From: Rickettsiales bacterium
GTDB lineage: Bacteria; Pseudomonadota; Alphaproteobacteria; Rickettsiales; UBA1997
Length of the DNA stretch: 64,000 nt
Direction: 5' to 3'
NCBI GenBank assembly: GCA_965661355.1
Contig: CBFIDI010000001.1
Coordinates: 11,956 to 75,955, forward strand
Part shown: positions 10,269-52,710 of the stretch, one piece after another
Numbering within the stretch: position 1 is the stretch's first letter
How the letters are laid out: each line of letters opens with the position of its first letter
Made by a program: the position numbers and the translations under genes
Notes under the pieces: generated by a model
What the model was told of the DNA's origin: nothing
The model's input: only the letters and a program-made list of their open reading frames with translations
Databases searched by the model: none

Positions 10269-10796
10269 GCGCATTTTTTTGCACATTTTTTACCAAGCTA
10301 ATATTTAATAAATTTTTGCTGGTGGCAATTCTTTTAAAAAGACGCAAAATGACATCAAAAAAAATTGACCCTGAAATTAAAATAAATGTTTTTTTAAAGG
10401 TTAAAATCTTCAATTCTTTTAACTGCTACGAGTAGCAACTTTTTAAAGATGCTTTAAAATAAAGGCTTTAAAAAATAAAAATATTAAATTTTAAGAAAAT
10501 AAGCATTTTTAGCCTTAAAATCTACTGCTTTATTTTCATGAAAAAATCTAATTAATATTCTTGCTTTGTCAAAATTAAAACCGGGCTAGAATAATTTAAA
10601 AGTTTTAAAAAATAAGTTTTTTCTTGAATATTGCCAGCTTGAACATTGTTAAATATTTACCGCACATCAAACCAAGTTCTTGACTTTAAATACTAATATT
10701 TAGCTCTGAGTTAGCGCTAAAAAATGGAGACTCGTGTAATTGTTTGTGTCATTTTTATTTTTGCGTTAATTTTTCTAAAGAAGCTTGCTGTATTTT

Positions 10797-10847
10797 TAAA
10801 AGCTTTTTACGCAAAATTCTTCGTGACTTTTGCGTAAAAAGCTTTTA
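10797..10847. repeat. Perfect 20-bp inverted repeat (51-nt hairpin) upstream of gatB
   Basis: TAAAAGCTTTTTACGCAAAA (10797-10816), an 11-nt loop, then TTTTGCGTAAAAAGCTTTTA (10828-10847). Confidence 0.8.
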
Positions 10848-10924
10848 AAATAATTCTTTTCAAGACTAAGAAGCGGTTAATTAATCGCCCTTTTTAAGGT
10901 CAAAAACTTTAAATAATTAACAAA

Positions 10925-25923: not shown

Positions 25924-26139
25924 ATGTTTTATTTTTTAAAAAACTCAAATGACAATATTTTACCATTAAGTAATGCAAAAAGCAAGCAGAAAAGTTTTTA
26001 TGACCAAGTGATAAAAGCCATTAATAATCGGTGAGTTTCAAAATTATTTCAACAAACTAAATAACCAGAAAAATTCACTTTGGCGCAAAATAATCACTTA
26101 ATAAGGATATTTTATATAACAAAATTATACAAATTAGAC

Positions 26140-26215
26140 TGGTAGCACAGGAGGGATTCGAACCCCCGACCAACGGATTATGATCCCGCTGCTCTACCGA
26201 CTGAGCTACTGTGCC
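26140..26215 (-). tRNA. tRNA with CAU anticodon (Met or lysidine-modified Ile2), CCA encoded
   Basis: The reverse complement folds as a cloverleaf: GGCACAG TA GCTC AGTCGGTA GAGC A GCGGG ATCATAA TCCGT TGGTC GGGGG TTCGAAT CCCTC CTGTGCT A CCA. The body and variable loop resemble the Ile2 type. Pair 1:72 is G-U. Confidence 0.85.
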
Positions 26216-26365
26216 ATGCTTACAAGAAGTAATTTTACAAGACCTAATCTTGCATTATGCGCGTTTTTATATTTTAAAAAATACGCGTAACTTTTTTAAA
26301 ACTTTAGCTAATTATTGATAAAAAGTCAAGAAAAACCAATTTTATTTTCTAAGAAATAATGACCG

Positions 26366-26529
26366 ATACCAAGTCCCATCTTTAAATATTAATTTAGGGC
26401 TAAATAATTTAATTAATAAATTTATTAACAAAAACTTATCCGTCGCAACGCTAAGTTAGGTTTTTGGTGATGGATTTAGTGATTAAATTACGGGCGGATA
26501 AATTGGTGCTTGAAGATGGGATTTGGTAT
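26366..26529. repeat. Palindromic MITE/RPE-like element, copy 1
   Basis: Terminal inverted repeats ATACCAAGTCCCATCTT (26366-26382) and AAGATGGGATTTGGTAT (26513-26529) match at 16 of 17 positions. An inner inverted repeat TTATCCG/CGGATAA is present. The element is homologous along its length to 48172..48343. Confidence 0.7.
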
Positions 26530-27186
26530 AATATAAATAATTAAGTTTTTAAGATAAATCTAGCACTCTTTTTGTTTAATGATAAATATTGATCTATAGC
26601 ACTAAATTTCACTTTTAAAAATATATATTTTGTATTTTTGACGAAAATTCGTTACAAAATATAGTATTTTTACCCAGCGCCGTCGCTTTTTTCATAATTT
26701 CAAGATCAAGGTTCATCGCTATAAATCACCAGAGATCTTTATAAAATTGAATAAGAAGATTAACAATCTATATTTTTACTATTTGTTATATTATTTACAT
26801 CATTTTAACTTTATGAATGATTATTAAAGATTTTAAATTTTATCAAGATAAATTAGTAAAAGTGACATAAAAGAGCAAGCTTGTGTTTTATATATCAAAT
26901 TTGTCGCAAAATTATGTATTAAATCTTATATCATTCTTCATCTAATAAAGCCCAAATAAACATTTTATCTTTTTAATAAAGATCTAGACTTATATCGCGA
27001 TGTAATTTTGTTTTTTAATAATTTTTTGCTAAAAATATTCTGCGCTTATGTCATTTTGAAGAGAAAATAATATCGAGGTTATCATTTCAAGTTATGGCAC
27101 CAGTCCCGAGCACGAAAGGGCTAGAATTTTAAAAATTTTGAACTAGAGTAATATTAATATTAAAAATGTAATGAAAATTATTATTT

Positions 27187-30117: not shown

Positions 30118-30625
30118 GAAATATAAATTAACCCAGCTTTTAAAGGGCCCGTTTTTAAATGTTGATTTAAACTAAGTAATTTGACTGATAAATTGATTAG
30201 CAGAAATAAATAGGTTAAAATTTATGCTAAAAAATTAGCAATTAAATCTAGTATTTTTATTTATATTAGCCAGTTCTTGCCCTTAAAATATCTTTGAACT
30301 TCACTTCTTAACCTTTACTTATAAAAAACCTTATTGCGCTTTTTATTCATGGCAGTATTTTTAAAGTTAATTTGCCTAAAAATTACTTTTACAAGCAAAA
30401 TTTGTTTAAATATATTTATTGCTAAAGATGCATAATTGAATAATAAAGAGTAGAAATTTTGCAAATTATAGATAAAAGATGGGTGCGATTATCAAATTGT
30501 TTTTTACAAAAAACGCAAAAATTTCTTAATAATTACAAAAATCAAGAAAGCGCCTAATATTTTAAGGATAAGTTTTTTTATAAGCGTAAAAAATAATCTT
30601 CAAATAACAAATAAAATTACAAAAA

Positions 30626-32015: not shown

Positions 32016-32774
32016 CTAGCCAAAACGCCCAGTAATATAGTCTTGTGTCTCTTTATTTTCGGGGTTAGTGAATATTTTATCGGTTTTACCATATTCTATC
32101 ACTTTGCCCATATTAAAAAATGCTGTTTTATCCGAAACCCTTGCGGCTTGCTGCATTGAGTGGGTTACAATTATAATGGTATAATTTTCTTTTAGCTCAT
32201 CAATTAATTCTTCAATTTTAGCCGTTGCAATAGGGTCAAGCGCCGAGCATGGTTCGTCCATTAAGATCACCTCGGGCTGTACAGCAATTGTTCTGGCAAT
32301 ACAAAGGCGCTGTTGCTGACCTCCCGAAAGACTTGTTGCTTCGTCGTTAAGCCGATCTTTTACCTCGGCAAAAAGTCCAGCCTTAATCAAGCTTGTTTCG
32401 ACAATTTCGTTAAGCTCTTGTTTGCCACGAAATGTGCCATGAATTCTGGGGCCATAGGCAACATTTTCATAAATTGACTTAGGAAATGGGTTAGGCTTTT
32501 GAAAAACCATTCCAACTTTAGCGCGCAATAAGACTAAATCTTGGCTTTTATCGTAAATATTTTTATTGTCGACGGTAATTTTGCCTTTAATTTGACAAGA
32601 GCTGATAGTGTCATTCATTCTATTTAAGCATCTTAAAAAACTTGATTTTCCACAGCCCGAAGGCCCAATTAACGCAGTAACACTATTTTCGTTAAAATCA
32701 AGATTAACATTAAATAAAGCTTGCTTTGAGCCGTAAAATAAATCTATATTTTTTGCTTTTATTTTATATTCCAT
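32016..32774 (-). CDS. pstB: Phosphate ABC transporter ATP-binding protein
   Basis: [32 protein letters not shown] and the C-terminal YITGRFG. Length is 252 aa. Confidence 0.92.
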
Positions 32775-32965
32775 TTATATTCTTATCTGATTACAGCGGC
32801 CAACTTATAACGGCCAACTTAAATTTCGAGCTTTTAAGCTCTTAGCCTTCGCGTAACATTGCTATTTTAGTTAAAAGTAATTATATTATCAACTAATAAA
32901 TTGTACTCTTTTGAATCAAGAAAAACTACTTGCGTAATTGAAAAAGGGCGATTAGGAATATGACG

Positions 32966-33120
32966 CTTGTGGGGCAAGACTTAGGGTTTACGGCGCACGA
33001 GCGCCGCCCCACTCTTGTGGGGCAAGACTTAGGGTTTACGGCGCACGAGCGCCGCCCCACTCTTGTGGGGCAAGACTTAGGGTTTACGGCGCACGAGCGC
33101 CGCCCCACTCTTGTGGGGCC
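32966..33120. repeat. Perfect 48-bp tandem repeat x3.2, GC-rich and hairpin-forming
   Basis: The unit CTTGTGGGGCAAGACTTAGGGTTTACGGCGCACGAGCGCCGCCCCACT occurs at 32966-33013, 33014-33061 and 33062-33109, plus 11 nt of a fourth unit. 31 of 48 bases are G/C. Nested stems are GTGGGGC/GCCCCAC and CGGCGC/GCGCCG. Confidence 0.95.
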
Positions 33121-33196
33121 CCAGCCCCCCTTCGCGCCCCCTTCGGACGAAATCCAAGGGGAGACTGCTTATAAAAATTTAAACTTTATTTATTAA

Positions 33197-34579
33197 ATGA
33201 AATTAAAGAAATTATTGCCCCGATCTTTATTTGGAAGGTTTTTGCTTATTATCACAATTCCGACATTAATTGTGCAAATTGTGGCAATTTATGTATTTTT
33301 TTATGTCTATGTCGATGTAATAAGCAAATATATGGCCAGAAGCGTCGTTTCAGAAATGTCTTTTGTGCAAGATGTTGTAAATCAGGAAAAAGATCTGGAG
33401 ATTATCAAAGATTTCTCACGAAATGTCGATTTAAACTTTTATTTTGAAGGCAGGAAAGGGCGCAAAAAGACAAAAATTGCCGATTCAAAATGGCGACGCA
33501 ATAAAATTTACGAATATGTAAACTTCATTCCGGTAATAGATCCACTAAACCGCTTTAAATCAGAACTTAAAGGCTATGGACTGAGCCCATACGAAATCTT
33601 TCAAGATATTGAAGATAGTGACATATTAATTGTAAAAACTCAAACCGATAATGGCGTTTTGTCTTTTGAAGTGCCCGCAAAAAGGATCGATAACAGCTCG
33701 GGTAAATATGTTTTTATTGCCTGGATGGTTGCAACCGCCTTCATTACATCAATAATATCAATTATATTTTTAAAAAACCAACTTAGGCCAATAAACTCTT
33801 TGAGCAAAGCCGCAGAAAAATTTGGTCGCGGCCAAGACGCCCCCAATTTCAGGCCCTCGGGCTCGAGCGAGGTTCGATCGGTGGCGATTTCTTTTGTAAA
33901 GATGAAAGAAAGAATAATCAGGCAAATTTCACAGCGCACCGACATGCTTTCAGCAGTTTCGCATGATTTAAGAACGCCCTTAACCAGAATGAAGTTACAA
34001 CTTGAAATGATGGCGCAAGGCGAAGAGGTAGAGGCTCTTAAAAACGATATTGATGATATGAGTAAGCTTGTTGAAGAATATTTAGATTTTGCCCGATTTG
34101 AAGAAAGAGAGAAAAAAAGCCCAATTAAAATAAGACAATTTTTAAAAGAAAAAGTTGCAAAATATTATCAAGATATGAATAAGAATATCGATTTTGAAAC
34201 TAATATTTCATCAAATTTTAAAATTATGCTAAAAAAACTCGCTTTTAAAAGAGCGCTGATAAACTTAGTTGACAATGCCTTTAATTATGGCAATAAAGCT
34301 TTGGTCAGGGCGAATTTAAGTGACAATAACCTTATAATTACTATCGAAGATGACGGCCTTGGCATTCCTGAATCAGAATATAAAAATGTATTTAAGCCAT
34401 TTTACAGAATTGATGGCGCACGCAACCAAGATAAAGACAATAAAAAACAACAATCTAATATGGGTTCTGGGCTTGGCCTAGCTATTGCCATGGACGCAAT
34501 TACTTCGCATGGCGGAAGAATTAAGCTTTCAGAATCGAGATTTAAAGGTCTTAAAGTGTCAATTTTTATTCCAATTTAA
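33197..34579 (+). CDS. Two-component sensor histidine kinase (EnvZ-like: 2 TM, HAMP, HisKA, HATPase_c)
   Basis: H-box SAVSHDLRTPLTRM, N-box LVDNAFNYG, and the G-boxes DDGLGIP and GSGLGLAIA. Length is 460 aa. Confidence 0.88.
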   Translation: MKLKKLLPRSLFGRFLLIITIPTLIVQIVAIYVFFYVYVDVISKYMARSVVSEMSFVQDVVNQEKDLEIIKDFSRNVDLNFYFEGRKGRKKTKIADSKWRRNKIYEYVNFIPVIDPLNRFKSELKGYGLSPYEIFQDIEDSDILIVKTQTDNGVLSFEVPAKRIDNSSGKYVFIAWMVATAFITSIISIIFLKNQLRPINSLSKAAEKFGRGQDAPNFRPSGSSEVRSVAISFVKMKERIIRQISQRTDMLSAVSHDLRTPLTRMKLQLEMMAQGEEVEALKNDIDDMSKLVEEYLDFARFEEREKKSPIKIRQFLKEKVAKYYQDMNKNIDFETNISSNFKIMLKKLAFKRALINLVDNAFNYGNKALVRANLSDNNLIITIEDDGLGIPESEYKNVFKPFYRIDGARNQDKDNKKQQSNMGSGLGLAIAMDAITSHGGRIKLSESRFKGLKVSIFIPI

Positions 34580-48171: not shown

Positions 48172-48343
48172 ATGCCAAGCCTTGTCTTTAACAACTAATT
48201 TAGGGCTTAATAATTTAATTAATGAATTTATCATCATAAGCCGAGTTAAGGCCAAGACTCATGGTTAATTTCTTTGGCGATGAAGAGATTTAGCAATTAA
48301 GCCATAGCAGATAAGTTAGCGCTTAAAAGTAAAGCTTGATATA
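48172..48343. repeat. Palindromic MITE/RPE-like element, copy 2 (more degenerate)
   Basis: It shares with copy 1 the core AATTTAGGGCT[A/T]AATAATTTAATTAAT[A/G]AATTTAT (33 of 35 identical). The right half TTTGG[T/C]GATG..GATTTAG..ATTAA..GATAA.TT.G.GCTT.AA also aligns. The terminal inverted repeats are decayed. Confidence 0.6.
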
Positions 48344-50354: not shown

Positions 50355-51689
50355 ATGCCTATTGAAGTTTTAATGCCAGCCTTGTCACCAACCATGACAG
50401 AAGGCAATTTAGCAAGTTGGATCAAAAAAGAAGGAGACAAAGTCGAAGCCGGCGAAGTAATTGCTGAAATTGAAACAGACAAAGCCACAATGGAAGTTGA
50501 AGCCGTTGATGAAGGGGTTTTGGGTAAAATTTTAGTTAAAGAAGGAACTGAAAATGTTAAGGTAAATAGTGCCATTGCTCTGATTCTAGAAGATGGAGAA
50601 GACAAAAAAGAACTTGAAAATTATAAACCAGAAGAAGGTGGCGCTGAAAAATCTGAAAAAAAACCAGAAGACAGCCAGAGCGACAATAAGAATGAAGAAA
50701 AAGACGATAAGCAAAACGATAAAGAAGATAATAAAAAACAAGAAATCAATAAAATAGAAGAAAAAAAGCAACCAAAATCAACCGCCACAAGCGACAGTTT
50801 TTTGGTTGATGATTTACTTGGCGTTAAAGCAAGCCCGCTAGCAAAAAGAATTGCCAAGGAAAATAACCTAACTTTGGCGCAAATTGAAGGCAGCGGACCA
50901 AGAGGAAGAATTATTAAGGACGATGTTTTAGATTTTGCAAAAAGTGGTGGACCGAAAGGTGGCGCGGTTAGAAGAAATTCAAAGGAAGTTACCGAAGTTA
51001 AAAATAGTAATATTAGAAAAGTCATTGCTAAAAGATTGCTAGAATCTAAGCAGAAAGTTCCACATTTTTATTTATCGGCCGATTTAAATATCGATAAATT
51101 GCTAGATATGAGAAAATCTATTAATGAAGAGGCCAAAATATTAGAAAATGGTAAACCAGAATATAAAATTTCAGTTAACGATTTAGTAATTAAAGCCAGC
51201 GCCTTGGCACTGAAAAATGTTCCGCAGGCGAATAGCTCTTGGTCAGATGATGCGGTTCTGCTTTATAACAATGTTGACATTTCAGTTGCCGTAGCAATTG
51301 AAGATGGACTGATTACGCCAATTGTTAAGAACGCTGATCAAAAGGATATTATTGCAATTTCTGGCGAAGTAAAGTCTTTGGCTAAGAAGGCAAAAGAAGG
51401 AAAGCTTCAACCAGAAGAATTTCAGGGTGGAAGCTTTAGTATTTCTAACCTTGGAATGTATGCGGTAAATAATTTTCAGGCAATTGTTAACCCGCCTCAA
51501 AGCTGTATTTTAGCAGTTGGAGCTGGAATTAAAAAACCGATAGTTGATGAAGATAACAATATTAAATCGGCCACAATAATGAATGTTACATTGTCTTCAG
51601 ACCACAGATCTGTTGATGGGGCGGTTGGCGCAGAGTTTTTGGCGGCGCTTAAAAAATATATCGAAAAGCCAGTTTTGATGATTATTTAG
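50355..51689 (+). CDS. pdhC: Pyruvate dehydrogenase E2 (dihydrolipoamide acetyltransferase)
   Basis: Lipoyl domain [26 protein letters not shown], the E3-binding [11 protein letters not shown], and the catalytic [10 protein letters not shown]. Length is 444 aa. Confidence 0.92.
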
Positions 51690-51755
51690 CAACTAAATTC
51701 AAAGATTATAAAAGCCAGTTTTGATGATTATTTAGCAACTAAATTCAAAGATTAT
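51664..51755. repeat. Perfect 46-bp tandem duplication spanning the pdhC stop codon
   Basis: AAAAGCCAGTTTTGATGATTATTTAGCAACTAAATTCAAAGATTAT occurs at 51664-51709 and again at 51710-51755. Confidence 0.95.
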
Positions 51756-52710
51756 AATTTTGGATTTGACAATTTAAAACTAATATTGTTTAATTTTTAA
51801 ATATCAGCCGCTTAGATCGTTTTATTTAGCTAACGAGAAATTCAAATCTGAGTATATTTTTTTGCTCTGGATTCTATCTTTTGCTAACTAACAAAATGTA
51901 AACTAAGCCACATTCTTAGTCTAAGGCAACAAATGAAATTTGGAAAAATGTATAAAAAGTTCAAACTAATATTGGTTTTAATAATAACTTCTATATTAGT
52001 TTACAAAATATTCTTTAGTGCAAATAGCAAAGAAAACTTTAGCTGGATTTTTGAAGGGCAAGAAGAAAAACAGGTTTTGCCCGAATTATCAAATGAAGAA
52101 ATAGAAAAAAATAGCAAAATAGACTAAGTGTTTTTATGCTCAAAATTGTGTTTTAAGCCTGTTTTCTAGGCCACTTTCTTTGTTTTGGCGACAAAAACTT
52201 TACTAATGAATTCTAGTATATTTAAGTAAAACTATACATTTCACAACTTAGTTCATAAATTTTTGATGTAATTTATAAGGTGAAATTTCTTGAATTTATC
52301 TGAACTATGTCTAATTGCCAATTTTAAATGACAATTTATACCAAGCTCTATCTTTAAATGCTAAATATATCAAAAAAATATCCGCCTGTTATGCCTTGCT
52401 TTTGATAATAAATTTATTCATCAAATCTTGCCCCCCCTAGATTAGTACCTAAAAATATAATTTATTATATTTTATTTAATTAGCTTCATAATAAATGTTC
52501 ATTTTTCATGATAATTCTTTTGATAAAATTTCCTAACCCTTAAAAATTAATTATAAAATTAAAATGGAGCAACTTAATATTTCGTTGCTAGAAAATTGGC
52601 GTAATTTAGTGCAAAATTAATATTACCGCCCTGTTTTGTTGACTTTTTGACTTAAAAATACTAATATAAATCAATATATTTTTATATAAACACCAAAAAG
52701 CTAAACCCTA

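Follow-up and report, generated by a model that had tools for sequence, protein, structure and literature searches.

How a perfectly repeated, GC-rich stretch of DNA came to lie between two divergent genes of an AT-rich genome, and whether it has any role there, is the question raised by the pstB/sensor kinase spacer of a Rickettsiales bacterium. The spacer is located within the window, by which is meant the whole stretch of 64,000 nt that was analyzed, originating from a metagenome-assembled genome (MAG). On the evidence set out below, the array looks like an ordinary hairpin tandem repeat and not like a new regulatory or mobile system.

Sequence and Composition of the Repeat Array

Analysis with TRF identified a tandem array at positions 32966–33119 of the window, with a period of 48 bp, 3.2 copies, 100% matches and a score of 308. 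Read on the plus strand, it consists of three full units (32966–33013, 33014–33061, and 33062–33109), which are identical copies of CTTGTGGGGCAAGACTTAGGGTTTACGGCGCACGAGCGCCGCCCCACT with zero mismatches, followed by a partial fourth unit of 10 bp, CTTGTGGGGC (33110–33119). The 48-mer was found three times in the window compared with zero times across 100 shuffles, and no further copy with up to three mismatches was present within the 64 kb. These results bear out a first-pass annotation of this DNA, which had described three identical units with a partial fourth and had offered a VNTR as one reading. That reading holds for this perfect tandem array, as minisatellites/VNTRs are head-to-tail copies of a 10–100 bp unit and the array comprises 3.2 such copies of 48 bp. 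Perfect identity had also been taken as a sign of recent expansion, with which the array data are consistent.

The G+C content of the unit is 31/48, as previously noted, within DNA that is otherwise AT-rich (window mean 0.343, or 34.3%). Over the array it peaks at 0.72 when taken in 100-nt windows and at 0.80 in 60-nt windows, and the island at 32946–33179 is the G+C maximum of the window. The array is followed on the plus strand by a non-repeated GC-rich tail (33120–33170) containing GGGGCCCC, two copies of the direct repeat CCCCCTTCG (33126–33134 and 33137–33145) and a terminal hairpin, CCCCTTCGGACGAAATCCAAGGGG (CCCCTT..AAGGGG; 33138–33161), the last being evident from both sequence and fold. 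The two palindromic elements earlier attributed to a tail reaching approximately position 33170 are both present. A GACG tetranucleotide, which read on the opposite strand is the CGTC tag of alphaproteobacterial REPs, lies directly next to the first unit (32962–32965) and a second one occurs in the loop of the terminal hairpin (33146–33149), both being outside the repeated unit. The second most GC-rich spot near the array (33801–33899, 70% G+C) is within the kinase coding region.

Neighboring Genes and Open Reading Frames Across the Array

The left neighbor of the array is pstB, encoding the ATPase of a phosphate ABC transporter (32016–32774, minus strand), which scored 414 bits against the TIGR00972 equivalog model (cutoff 343). 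To the right, and divergent from it, is the gene for an EnvZ-like sensor histidine kinase with HAMP, HisKA and HATPase_c domains (33197–34579, plus strand); its ORF is intact and the N-terminus of the protein aligns with those of its relatives from the ATG. The spacer between the two genes is 422 bp, with 191 bp from the start of the array to the pstB start codon and 78 bp from its end to the kinase ATG. The divergent pstB and kinase context of the first-pass annotation was thereby confirmed. A further gene near the array is tatB.

Two ORFs extend over the array, one of 78 aa on the plus strand (32960–33196) and another on the minus strand (32926–33108), and both appear to have been opened by the 48-bp (16-codon) period. 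Three of the six reading frames are open across the array, simply as a consequence of the high G+C content of the unit and of its length of 16 codons. The GC3 values of the two ORFs are 0.63 and 0.67, respectively, compared with 0.14–0.32 in the neighboring genes, and a search of 5.8 billion proteins with the three open frames gave nothing at E ≤ 10. Both ORFs had been called spurious at first reading, a judgment with which the high GC3 and the lack of homologs agree. It could be argued that the plus-strand ORF is a real small gene, encoding the repeat peptide LVGQDLGFTAHERRPT three times over and translationally coupled to the kinase, as its stop codon abuts the kinase start (TAA-ATG). However, in addition to its GC3, its lack of homologs and the ease with which such a unit opens frames, the ORF is missing in relatives and the AGGA is only 2 nt 5' of the kinase ATG, making a genuine gene here highly improbable.

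Support for the Array in an Independent Assembly

The exact kinase and PstB proteins were found on two short Logan contigs, both from a single sequencing run (ERR15116646). The contig carrying pstB stops 30 nt into the first unit, and that carrying the kinase starts 30 nt before the base at which the last partial unit diverges into the tail. The corresponding Logan unitigs (L002 and L001) end and begin at precisely those 31-mers which branch only if at least two full units are present in tandem. This indicates that an independent assembler operating at k = 31 sees both junctions as well as at least two tandem units. It is this number of at least two full units that Logan supports, the figure of 3.2 copies being that of the contig. 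Collapse of the array to one unit had been named as an outcome that would count against it, and the unitigs of ERR15116646 instead fit two or more tandem units.

The gene order on either side of the array is the same as in relatives, which argues that the array is not a join between two genomes. An assembly artefact, in which foreign GC-rich reads were joined into the contig or a repeat was wrongly expanded, is suggested by the contig coming from a MAG, by a composition foreign to the genome and by a copy number taken from the contig. Against this, Logan carries both AT-rich flanks directly into unit sequence, its unitigs break exactly at the two 31-mers predicted from at least two tandem units, the flanks are syntenic with those of relatives, and no plasmid, vector-type, phage or Escherichia coli match was obtained. 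An artefact is very unlikely on this evidence.

Comparison with Relatives

Homologs of the kinase number in the thousands, with the nearest sharing 77, 75, and 72% identity, and some of these being named "Rickettsiales bacterium"; the closest relative in the collections searched is thus defined by a kinase identity of 77%. The divergent pstB/kinase pair is retained in six of six relatives (kinase identity 61–77%). Their spacers are of 121, 121, 130, 72, 60, and 78 bp and have no GC-rich DNA. In all three of the closest relatives, an alignment gap is found opposite positions ~32916–33175, the extra DNA of the window amounting to ~260 bp and comprising an AT-rich left part, the array and the GC-rich tail. 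Given spacers of 60–130 bp in the relatives compared with 422 bp here, these ~260 bp are, on parsimony, most probably an insertion in the lineage of the window. No convincing terminal inverted repeats or target duplication were identified around 32916–33175. Other large intergenic gaps in the window have a G+C content of 22–32%, compared with 65–80% for ~110 bp of the extra DNA, and a sensitive self-blastn of the single-copy insert against the rest of the window gave no donor for the GC-rich DNA at E < 1.

Several features of the window and of its relatives give an impression of the type of genome involved. A crude ORF tiling gave only ~73% coding sequence, and there are many AT-rich gaps (22–32% G+C) of 0.5–1.3 kb, such as those at 25924–27186 and 51690–52710; such large gaps are unlike those of a streamlined free-living genome. 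Apart from those of the array, the notable inverted repeats of the window are limited to two AT-rich near-perfect palindromes, at 10794–10850 (26-nt arms, 96% complementary, 5-nt loop) and 18150–18197. A dispersed AT-rich intergenic repeat of 47–68 nt occurs at 26366–26433 and 48172–48239 (81–89% identical), with weaker intergenic copies at 30138 and 34583. In the nearest relative (L019, 1–1896) there is a gene for a large ankyrin-repeat protein (>669 aa), and another relative (L020) is represented by contig JACCDV010746982.1 of GCA_013565675.1, an assembly of more than 740,000 contigs which is probably that of a eukaryotic host. The ankyrin-repeat protein and the likely host assembly suggest that the clade is host-associated.

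Position Within the Presumed Kinase Leader

Consensus scanning and sharing with relatives identified a promoter-like block at 32859–32892 with overlapping divergent sigma-70-like sites on the two strands. The plus-strand site, TTGCTA-17-TATATT (32859–32887), is directed at the kinase and the minus-strand site, TTGATA-17-TAAAAT (32892–32864), at pstB. The block, TTGCTATTTTA...TATATTATCAA (TAT(A/T)TTATCAA), is common to the window and two of the relatives (L003 and L005), and its sequence suggests that it acts as a promoter. Alignment and consensus scan both place it to the left of the array and of the insertion. With the shared block in this position, the array is assigned to the 5' leader of the kinase and not to the pstB side. 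The earlier suggestion that the array affects both divergent genes is not sustained, since only the kinase leader would contain it. An imperfect tandem of two 14-bp copies (TTACAGCGGCCAAC / TTATAACGGCCAAC; 32791–32818) is located in the presumed pstB leader and is absent from relatives.

On the plus strand, the 26 nt directly 5' of the kinase ATG (33171–33196) are AT-rich and resemble the same position in relatives (AATTTAATCAAATG and AATTTTAATAAATG). They appear to be a retained translation-initiation region, a role proposed from this resemblance. The array would then be flanked by the probable promoter of the kinase on one side and by its initiation region on the other. Were the shared promoter in use, the array would be transcribed within a leader of ~300 nt, compared with ~45 nt in relatives, and the transcript would form three pairs of adjacent stable hairpins. 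Any effect of these on the stability or translation of the kinase mRNA would be a by-product and not a conserved function.

Folding of the Array

A scan for perfect hairpins, together with folding, identified two types within the array. Hairpin A, CGGCGC-ACGA-GCGCCG, is found at 32991–33006, 33039–33054, and 33087–33102. Hairpin B, GCCCCAC-TCTT-GTGGGGC, was identified by the scan at 33006–33023, 33054–33071, and 33102–33119 and spans the unit junctions, the loop TCTT joining GCCCCAC of one unit to its partner GTGGGGC in the following unit. No perfect GC-rich hairpins other than these six occur anywhere in the window, the scan having required stems of 6 bp or longer with five or more G/C and loops of 3–7 nt. 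In the fold with adjacent hairpins, each period forms A as GGCGC-ACGA-GCGCC followed by B, and a 16-nt spacer, AAGACTTAGGGTTTAC, separates successive A and B pairs.

The first-pass annotation had proposed nested hairpins, with an outer stem GTGGGGC/GCCCCAC and CGGCGC-ACGA-GCGCCG within it, separated by a 14-nt bulge. Both stems exist, but the unpaired stretch is 15–16 nt; the two nested stems share one G, so that they pair as 7+5 or 6+6. Nesting itself is not favored, as the adjacent fold of the array is more stable (−75.3 compared with −65.4 kcal/mol, RNA parameters) and adjacent double hairpins, Hairpin B included, dominate the centroid structure. The folds of unit and array that it had proposed as a check showed both to be more stable than shuffles, with z = −3.4 to −3.7 for a single unit and z = −5.2 for the 241-nt region (about −5 on either strand). 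No terminator-like site was found on either strand between 32500 and 33500, no hairpin there being trailed by a U-run. An intrinsic terminator or insulator was ruled out, the stems being without a U-run on either strand.

Searches for Further Copies and Known Families

When the whole window was scanned with Rfam at gathering thresholds, two tRNAs only were detected. A permissive scan of 32780–33260 returned nothing above noise, with Flavi_TBFV_CRE scoring 22 bits and RAGATH-16 scoring 19.6 bits, the best Rfam 15 score of 22 bits being well below the gathering threshold of 60.5, and the array does not correspond to a known structured RNA. The GC-rich part had no blastn match in PLSDB plasmids, in INPHARED phages or in any complete E. 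coli genome. A REP/ERIC, vector or contaminant origin was rejected on this basis. The array had at first been described as belonging to no known repeat family, with a match to a REP/ERIC-type family, vector or contaminant named as the finding that would overturn it; the Rfam search proposed at that stage, now performed, placed it in no family at gathering threshold, and the E. coli (REP/ERIC-bearing), plasmid and phage searches agree.

Further copies of the unit were sought more widely. Self-blastn of the window and a covariance model of the double-hairpin unit, the latter run on the window with filters off, recovered no locus beyond the array, and no copy was present in ~115 kb of DNA from relatives, some of it overlapping. 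The single copies of the 48-mer for which a search of relatives had been recommended were therefore not found in these ~115 kb, nor elsewhere in the 64-kb window. The stem pattern with free spacer and loops gave five matches in 596 Gb of species-representative genomes, all in MAGs of 62–77% G+C; they share no spacer and are at about the level of chance. The exact 22-mer of the spacer had zero matches in JGI metagenomes and three scans of IMG/VR likewise gave none. A covariance model over 14 loci recovered only the array and the GC-rich loci that had been selected by pattern.

The double-hairpin stem pattern had one match in JGI metagenomes, on a contig of 65% G+C (L011; DSLFC04102__coassemble_506, region 1200–1443) which has no more in common with the unit than the stems and a few bases next to them. 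This region has a hairpin-rich stretch of ~140 bp (1251–1392) bracketed by ~50-bp direct repeats and containing a GGCGC/GCGCC and GCCCCAC/GTGGGGC double hairpin like that of the unit. The likeness was judged to be convergent or due to chance.

The unit has none of the motifs GTAG, CTAC, CGTC and GACG, and no transposase is encoded among the genes around the array, which are syntenic with those of relatives. The earlier proposal of a mobile or REP-like unit loses ground, as there is no second copy in the window, the ~115 kb from relatives or the public collections, and no GTAG/CGTC tag, terminal inverted repeat or target duplication.

Origin of the Array

The array is best explained as a recently expanded, hairpin-bearing minisatellite (VNTR) forming part of a lineage-specific insertion in the 5' leader of the kinase, a reading to which we assign a probability of roughly two in three. 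It is supported by the identity of the units, the partial unit, the gap in relatives, the intact kinase ORF, the single locus and the ends of the Logan contigs. As the array ends in a 10-bp partial unit, its precursor is expected to have been flanked by 10-bp direct repeats of CTTGTGGGGC. In the proposed sequence of events, ~110 bp of GC-rich and ~50 bp of AT-rich DNA would have been inserted between the promoter-like block and the initiation region. The ancestral single copy would have had the form CTTGTGGGGC-(38 bp)-CTTGTGGGGC, the 38-bp segment being GC-rich with two palindromes. Strong palindromes enclosed by a short direct repeat are a classic setting for slipped-strand mispairing. Such mispairing of the 10-bp repeats, or unequal recombination of one with the other, may then have been favored by the hairpins and have produced the 3.2 identical copies very recently, and the result is probably neutral.

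Two other perfect tandem duplications were found in the same 64 kb. The first (51664–51757) is a 46-bp sequence present twice, covering the last 26 nt and stop codon of an acyltransferase (E2-like) ORF (50355–51689) and 20 nt downstream. The second (63739–63816) is a 39-bp sequence present twice in frame, duplicating 13 residues (GKRIEKLKKDQL+1) in a long Lys/Glu-rich ORF on the plus strand which runs off the end of the window. No comparable perfect tandem duplications were found in 43 kb from two relatives. Two more duplications here and none in the 43 kb of the relatives suggest that tandem duplication is active in this genome, of which the 48-bp array would be the most conspicuous product.

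Some considerations count against the minisatellite. The DNA is GC-rich (65–80%), unlike the gaps of 22–32% G+C elsewhere in the window, and the window yielded no donor for it. In addition, a high G+C content of intergenic DNA in AT-rich genomes has been used as a criterion for structured non-coding RNAs (PMC6429828), by which this spacer would be flagged as an RNA candidate.

Alternative Explanations

The fold of the array and its place in the leader invite the view that it is a functional cis-regulatory leader or protein-binding array, acting either at the RNA level, within the kinase 5' UTR, or as a set of DNA sites. A factor would bind the tandem double hairpins, or they would adjust the stability and translation of the mRNA, with the number of units setting the kinase level. 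The array follows the shared promoter-like block and precedes the kinase ATG, beside which the AT-rich initiation region is preserved, and its fold is very stable both for the 241-nt region and for the single unit. In AT-rich genomes, structured RNAs are over-represented in long GC-rich intergenic regions, where simple, repetitive structures have been proposed to bind proteins (PMC6429828). However, it is missing in all six relatives despite the same gene pair, which argues against a conserved role. Covariation is impossible with identical units, there is neither an Rfam match nor a terminator-like site, and perfect identity suggests a very young array rather than a maintained one. A regulatory leader is accordingly considered unlikely. 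The hairpins, which we take to resemble the repeat stems of type I-E CRISPRs, also led to a CRISPR array being considered. It was rejected, as the whole 48-bp period is identical and leaves no unique spacers, no Rfam CRISPR-DR match was obtained at E ≤ 10, and the neighbors are pstB, the kinase and tatB with no cas genes.

Alternatively, the spacer could have received a small, non-autonomous mobile element which was then amplified locally and which belongs either to the REP/MITE type or to the mitochondrial GC-cluster/double-hairpin type. Each unit forms a GC-rich double hairpin, set in a genome that is AT-rich, and is optional among relatives; in the AT-rich genomes of mitochondria, GC-rich palindromic elements that are optional in this way are considered mobile (PMC7218506), and REPs can occur tandemly reiterated (PMC3733652). 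Such an element is nevertheless confined here to one locus in 64 kb, even by the unfiltered covariance model, and is absent from the DNA of relatives that was searched. The stem-pattern matches, at chance level in GC-rich genomes, do not extend its range, the unit has no tag, terminal inverted repeats and target-site duplications are lacking, and head-to-tail is a rare arrangement for REPs. We regard this origin as distinctly unlikely, and a MITE in particular was ruled out from the lack of terminal inverted repeats or target-site duplication around 32916–33175. That the unit should be the first bacterial GC-rich double-hairpin selfish element of the kind known from AT-rich mitochondrial genomes, seen shortly after its arrival in a Rickettsiales-like genome, or a copy-number-tunable leader setting the level of the EnvZ-like kinase, is a speculative idea of low probability. 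Dispersed copies in the rest of the genome would mean that GC-cluster-like selfish hairpins extend from mitochondria to their bacterial relatives, and the array would likewise matter more if unit number sets kinase expression.

The practical value of the array is at present small. As a recently expanded minisatellite (VNTR), it might serve for strain typing in an uncultured Rickettsiales-like lineage. For annotation, it is a caution against accepting the two ORFs that cross it, which are spurious, and assemblies from short reads will be interrupted at this point. Its position suggests that a very short bidirectional promoter spacer which is deeply conserved tolerates an insertion of 260 bp between promoter and translation-initiation region.

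Comparison with Known Repeat Systems

REP/BIME sequences are similar to the array in being short GC-rich extragenic palindromes which can be co-transcribed, form RNA hairpins and are sometimes tandem (PMC3733652). One end of the REP palindrome is marked by a GTAG or CGTC tetranucleotide, and REPs are associated with RAYT (IS200/IS605-type) transposases (PMC3733652), whereas no tag is found in the unit. REPs occur as tens to hundreds of dispersed copies, mostly as head-head or tail-tail dimers and for the most part 3' of genes; the array is a single locus in 64 kb, arranged head-to-tail and upstream of a gene. The mitochondrial GC clusters and double-hairpin elements (DHEs), such as those of yeast, the PstI palindromes of Neurospora and the DHEs of Allomyces (PMC7218506), share with the array a GC-rich unit of two hairpins which is situated in AT-rich intergenic DNA and is optional between relatives. 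However, they are multi-copy and dispersed, while the array is a single, tandem-only locus of a bacterium, with no dispersed copies in the window or the relatives.

Correia/ERIC/RUP-type intergenic repeats are co-transcribed into UTRs; where one is inserted between a promoter and a gene, the mRNA leader acquires a stable hairpin and the stability of the transcript can change. As MITEs, these repeats are present in many copies and possess terminal inverted repeats and target duplications, and the array shows none of these features.

The closest described objects are VNTR-105 and VNTR-141 of Wolbachia. These are intergenic, with one or two hairpins per period and periods that are 98–99% identical, and VNTR-105 has two hairpins and a 10-bp internal short repeat per period; their expansion was attributed to slipped-strand mispairing triggered by hairpins (PMC3287509). 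Another Rickettsiales genome, that of Ehrlichia ruminantium, is also rich in variable tandem repeats (PMC3287509). The array resembles the two Wolbachia VNTRs in being intergenic and head-to-tail in an AT-rich member of the Rickettsiales, with palindromic hairpins in each period and near-identical periods. It differs from them in its period (48 bp compared with 105 or 141 bp), in its stems (5–7 bp of almost pure G+C compared with 9 bp) and in its composition, the unit having 65% G+C in a genome of 34%, and there is no sequence similarity. It is also located inside a 5' leader, unlike the Wolbachia VNTRs, and, being known from one genome, it would be a candidate VNTR. With these differences, the array is probably best filed as an orphan example of the hairpin-bearing intergenic tandem repeats of Rickettsiales-type genomes.
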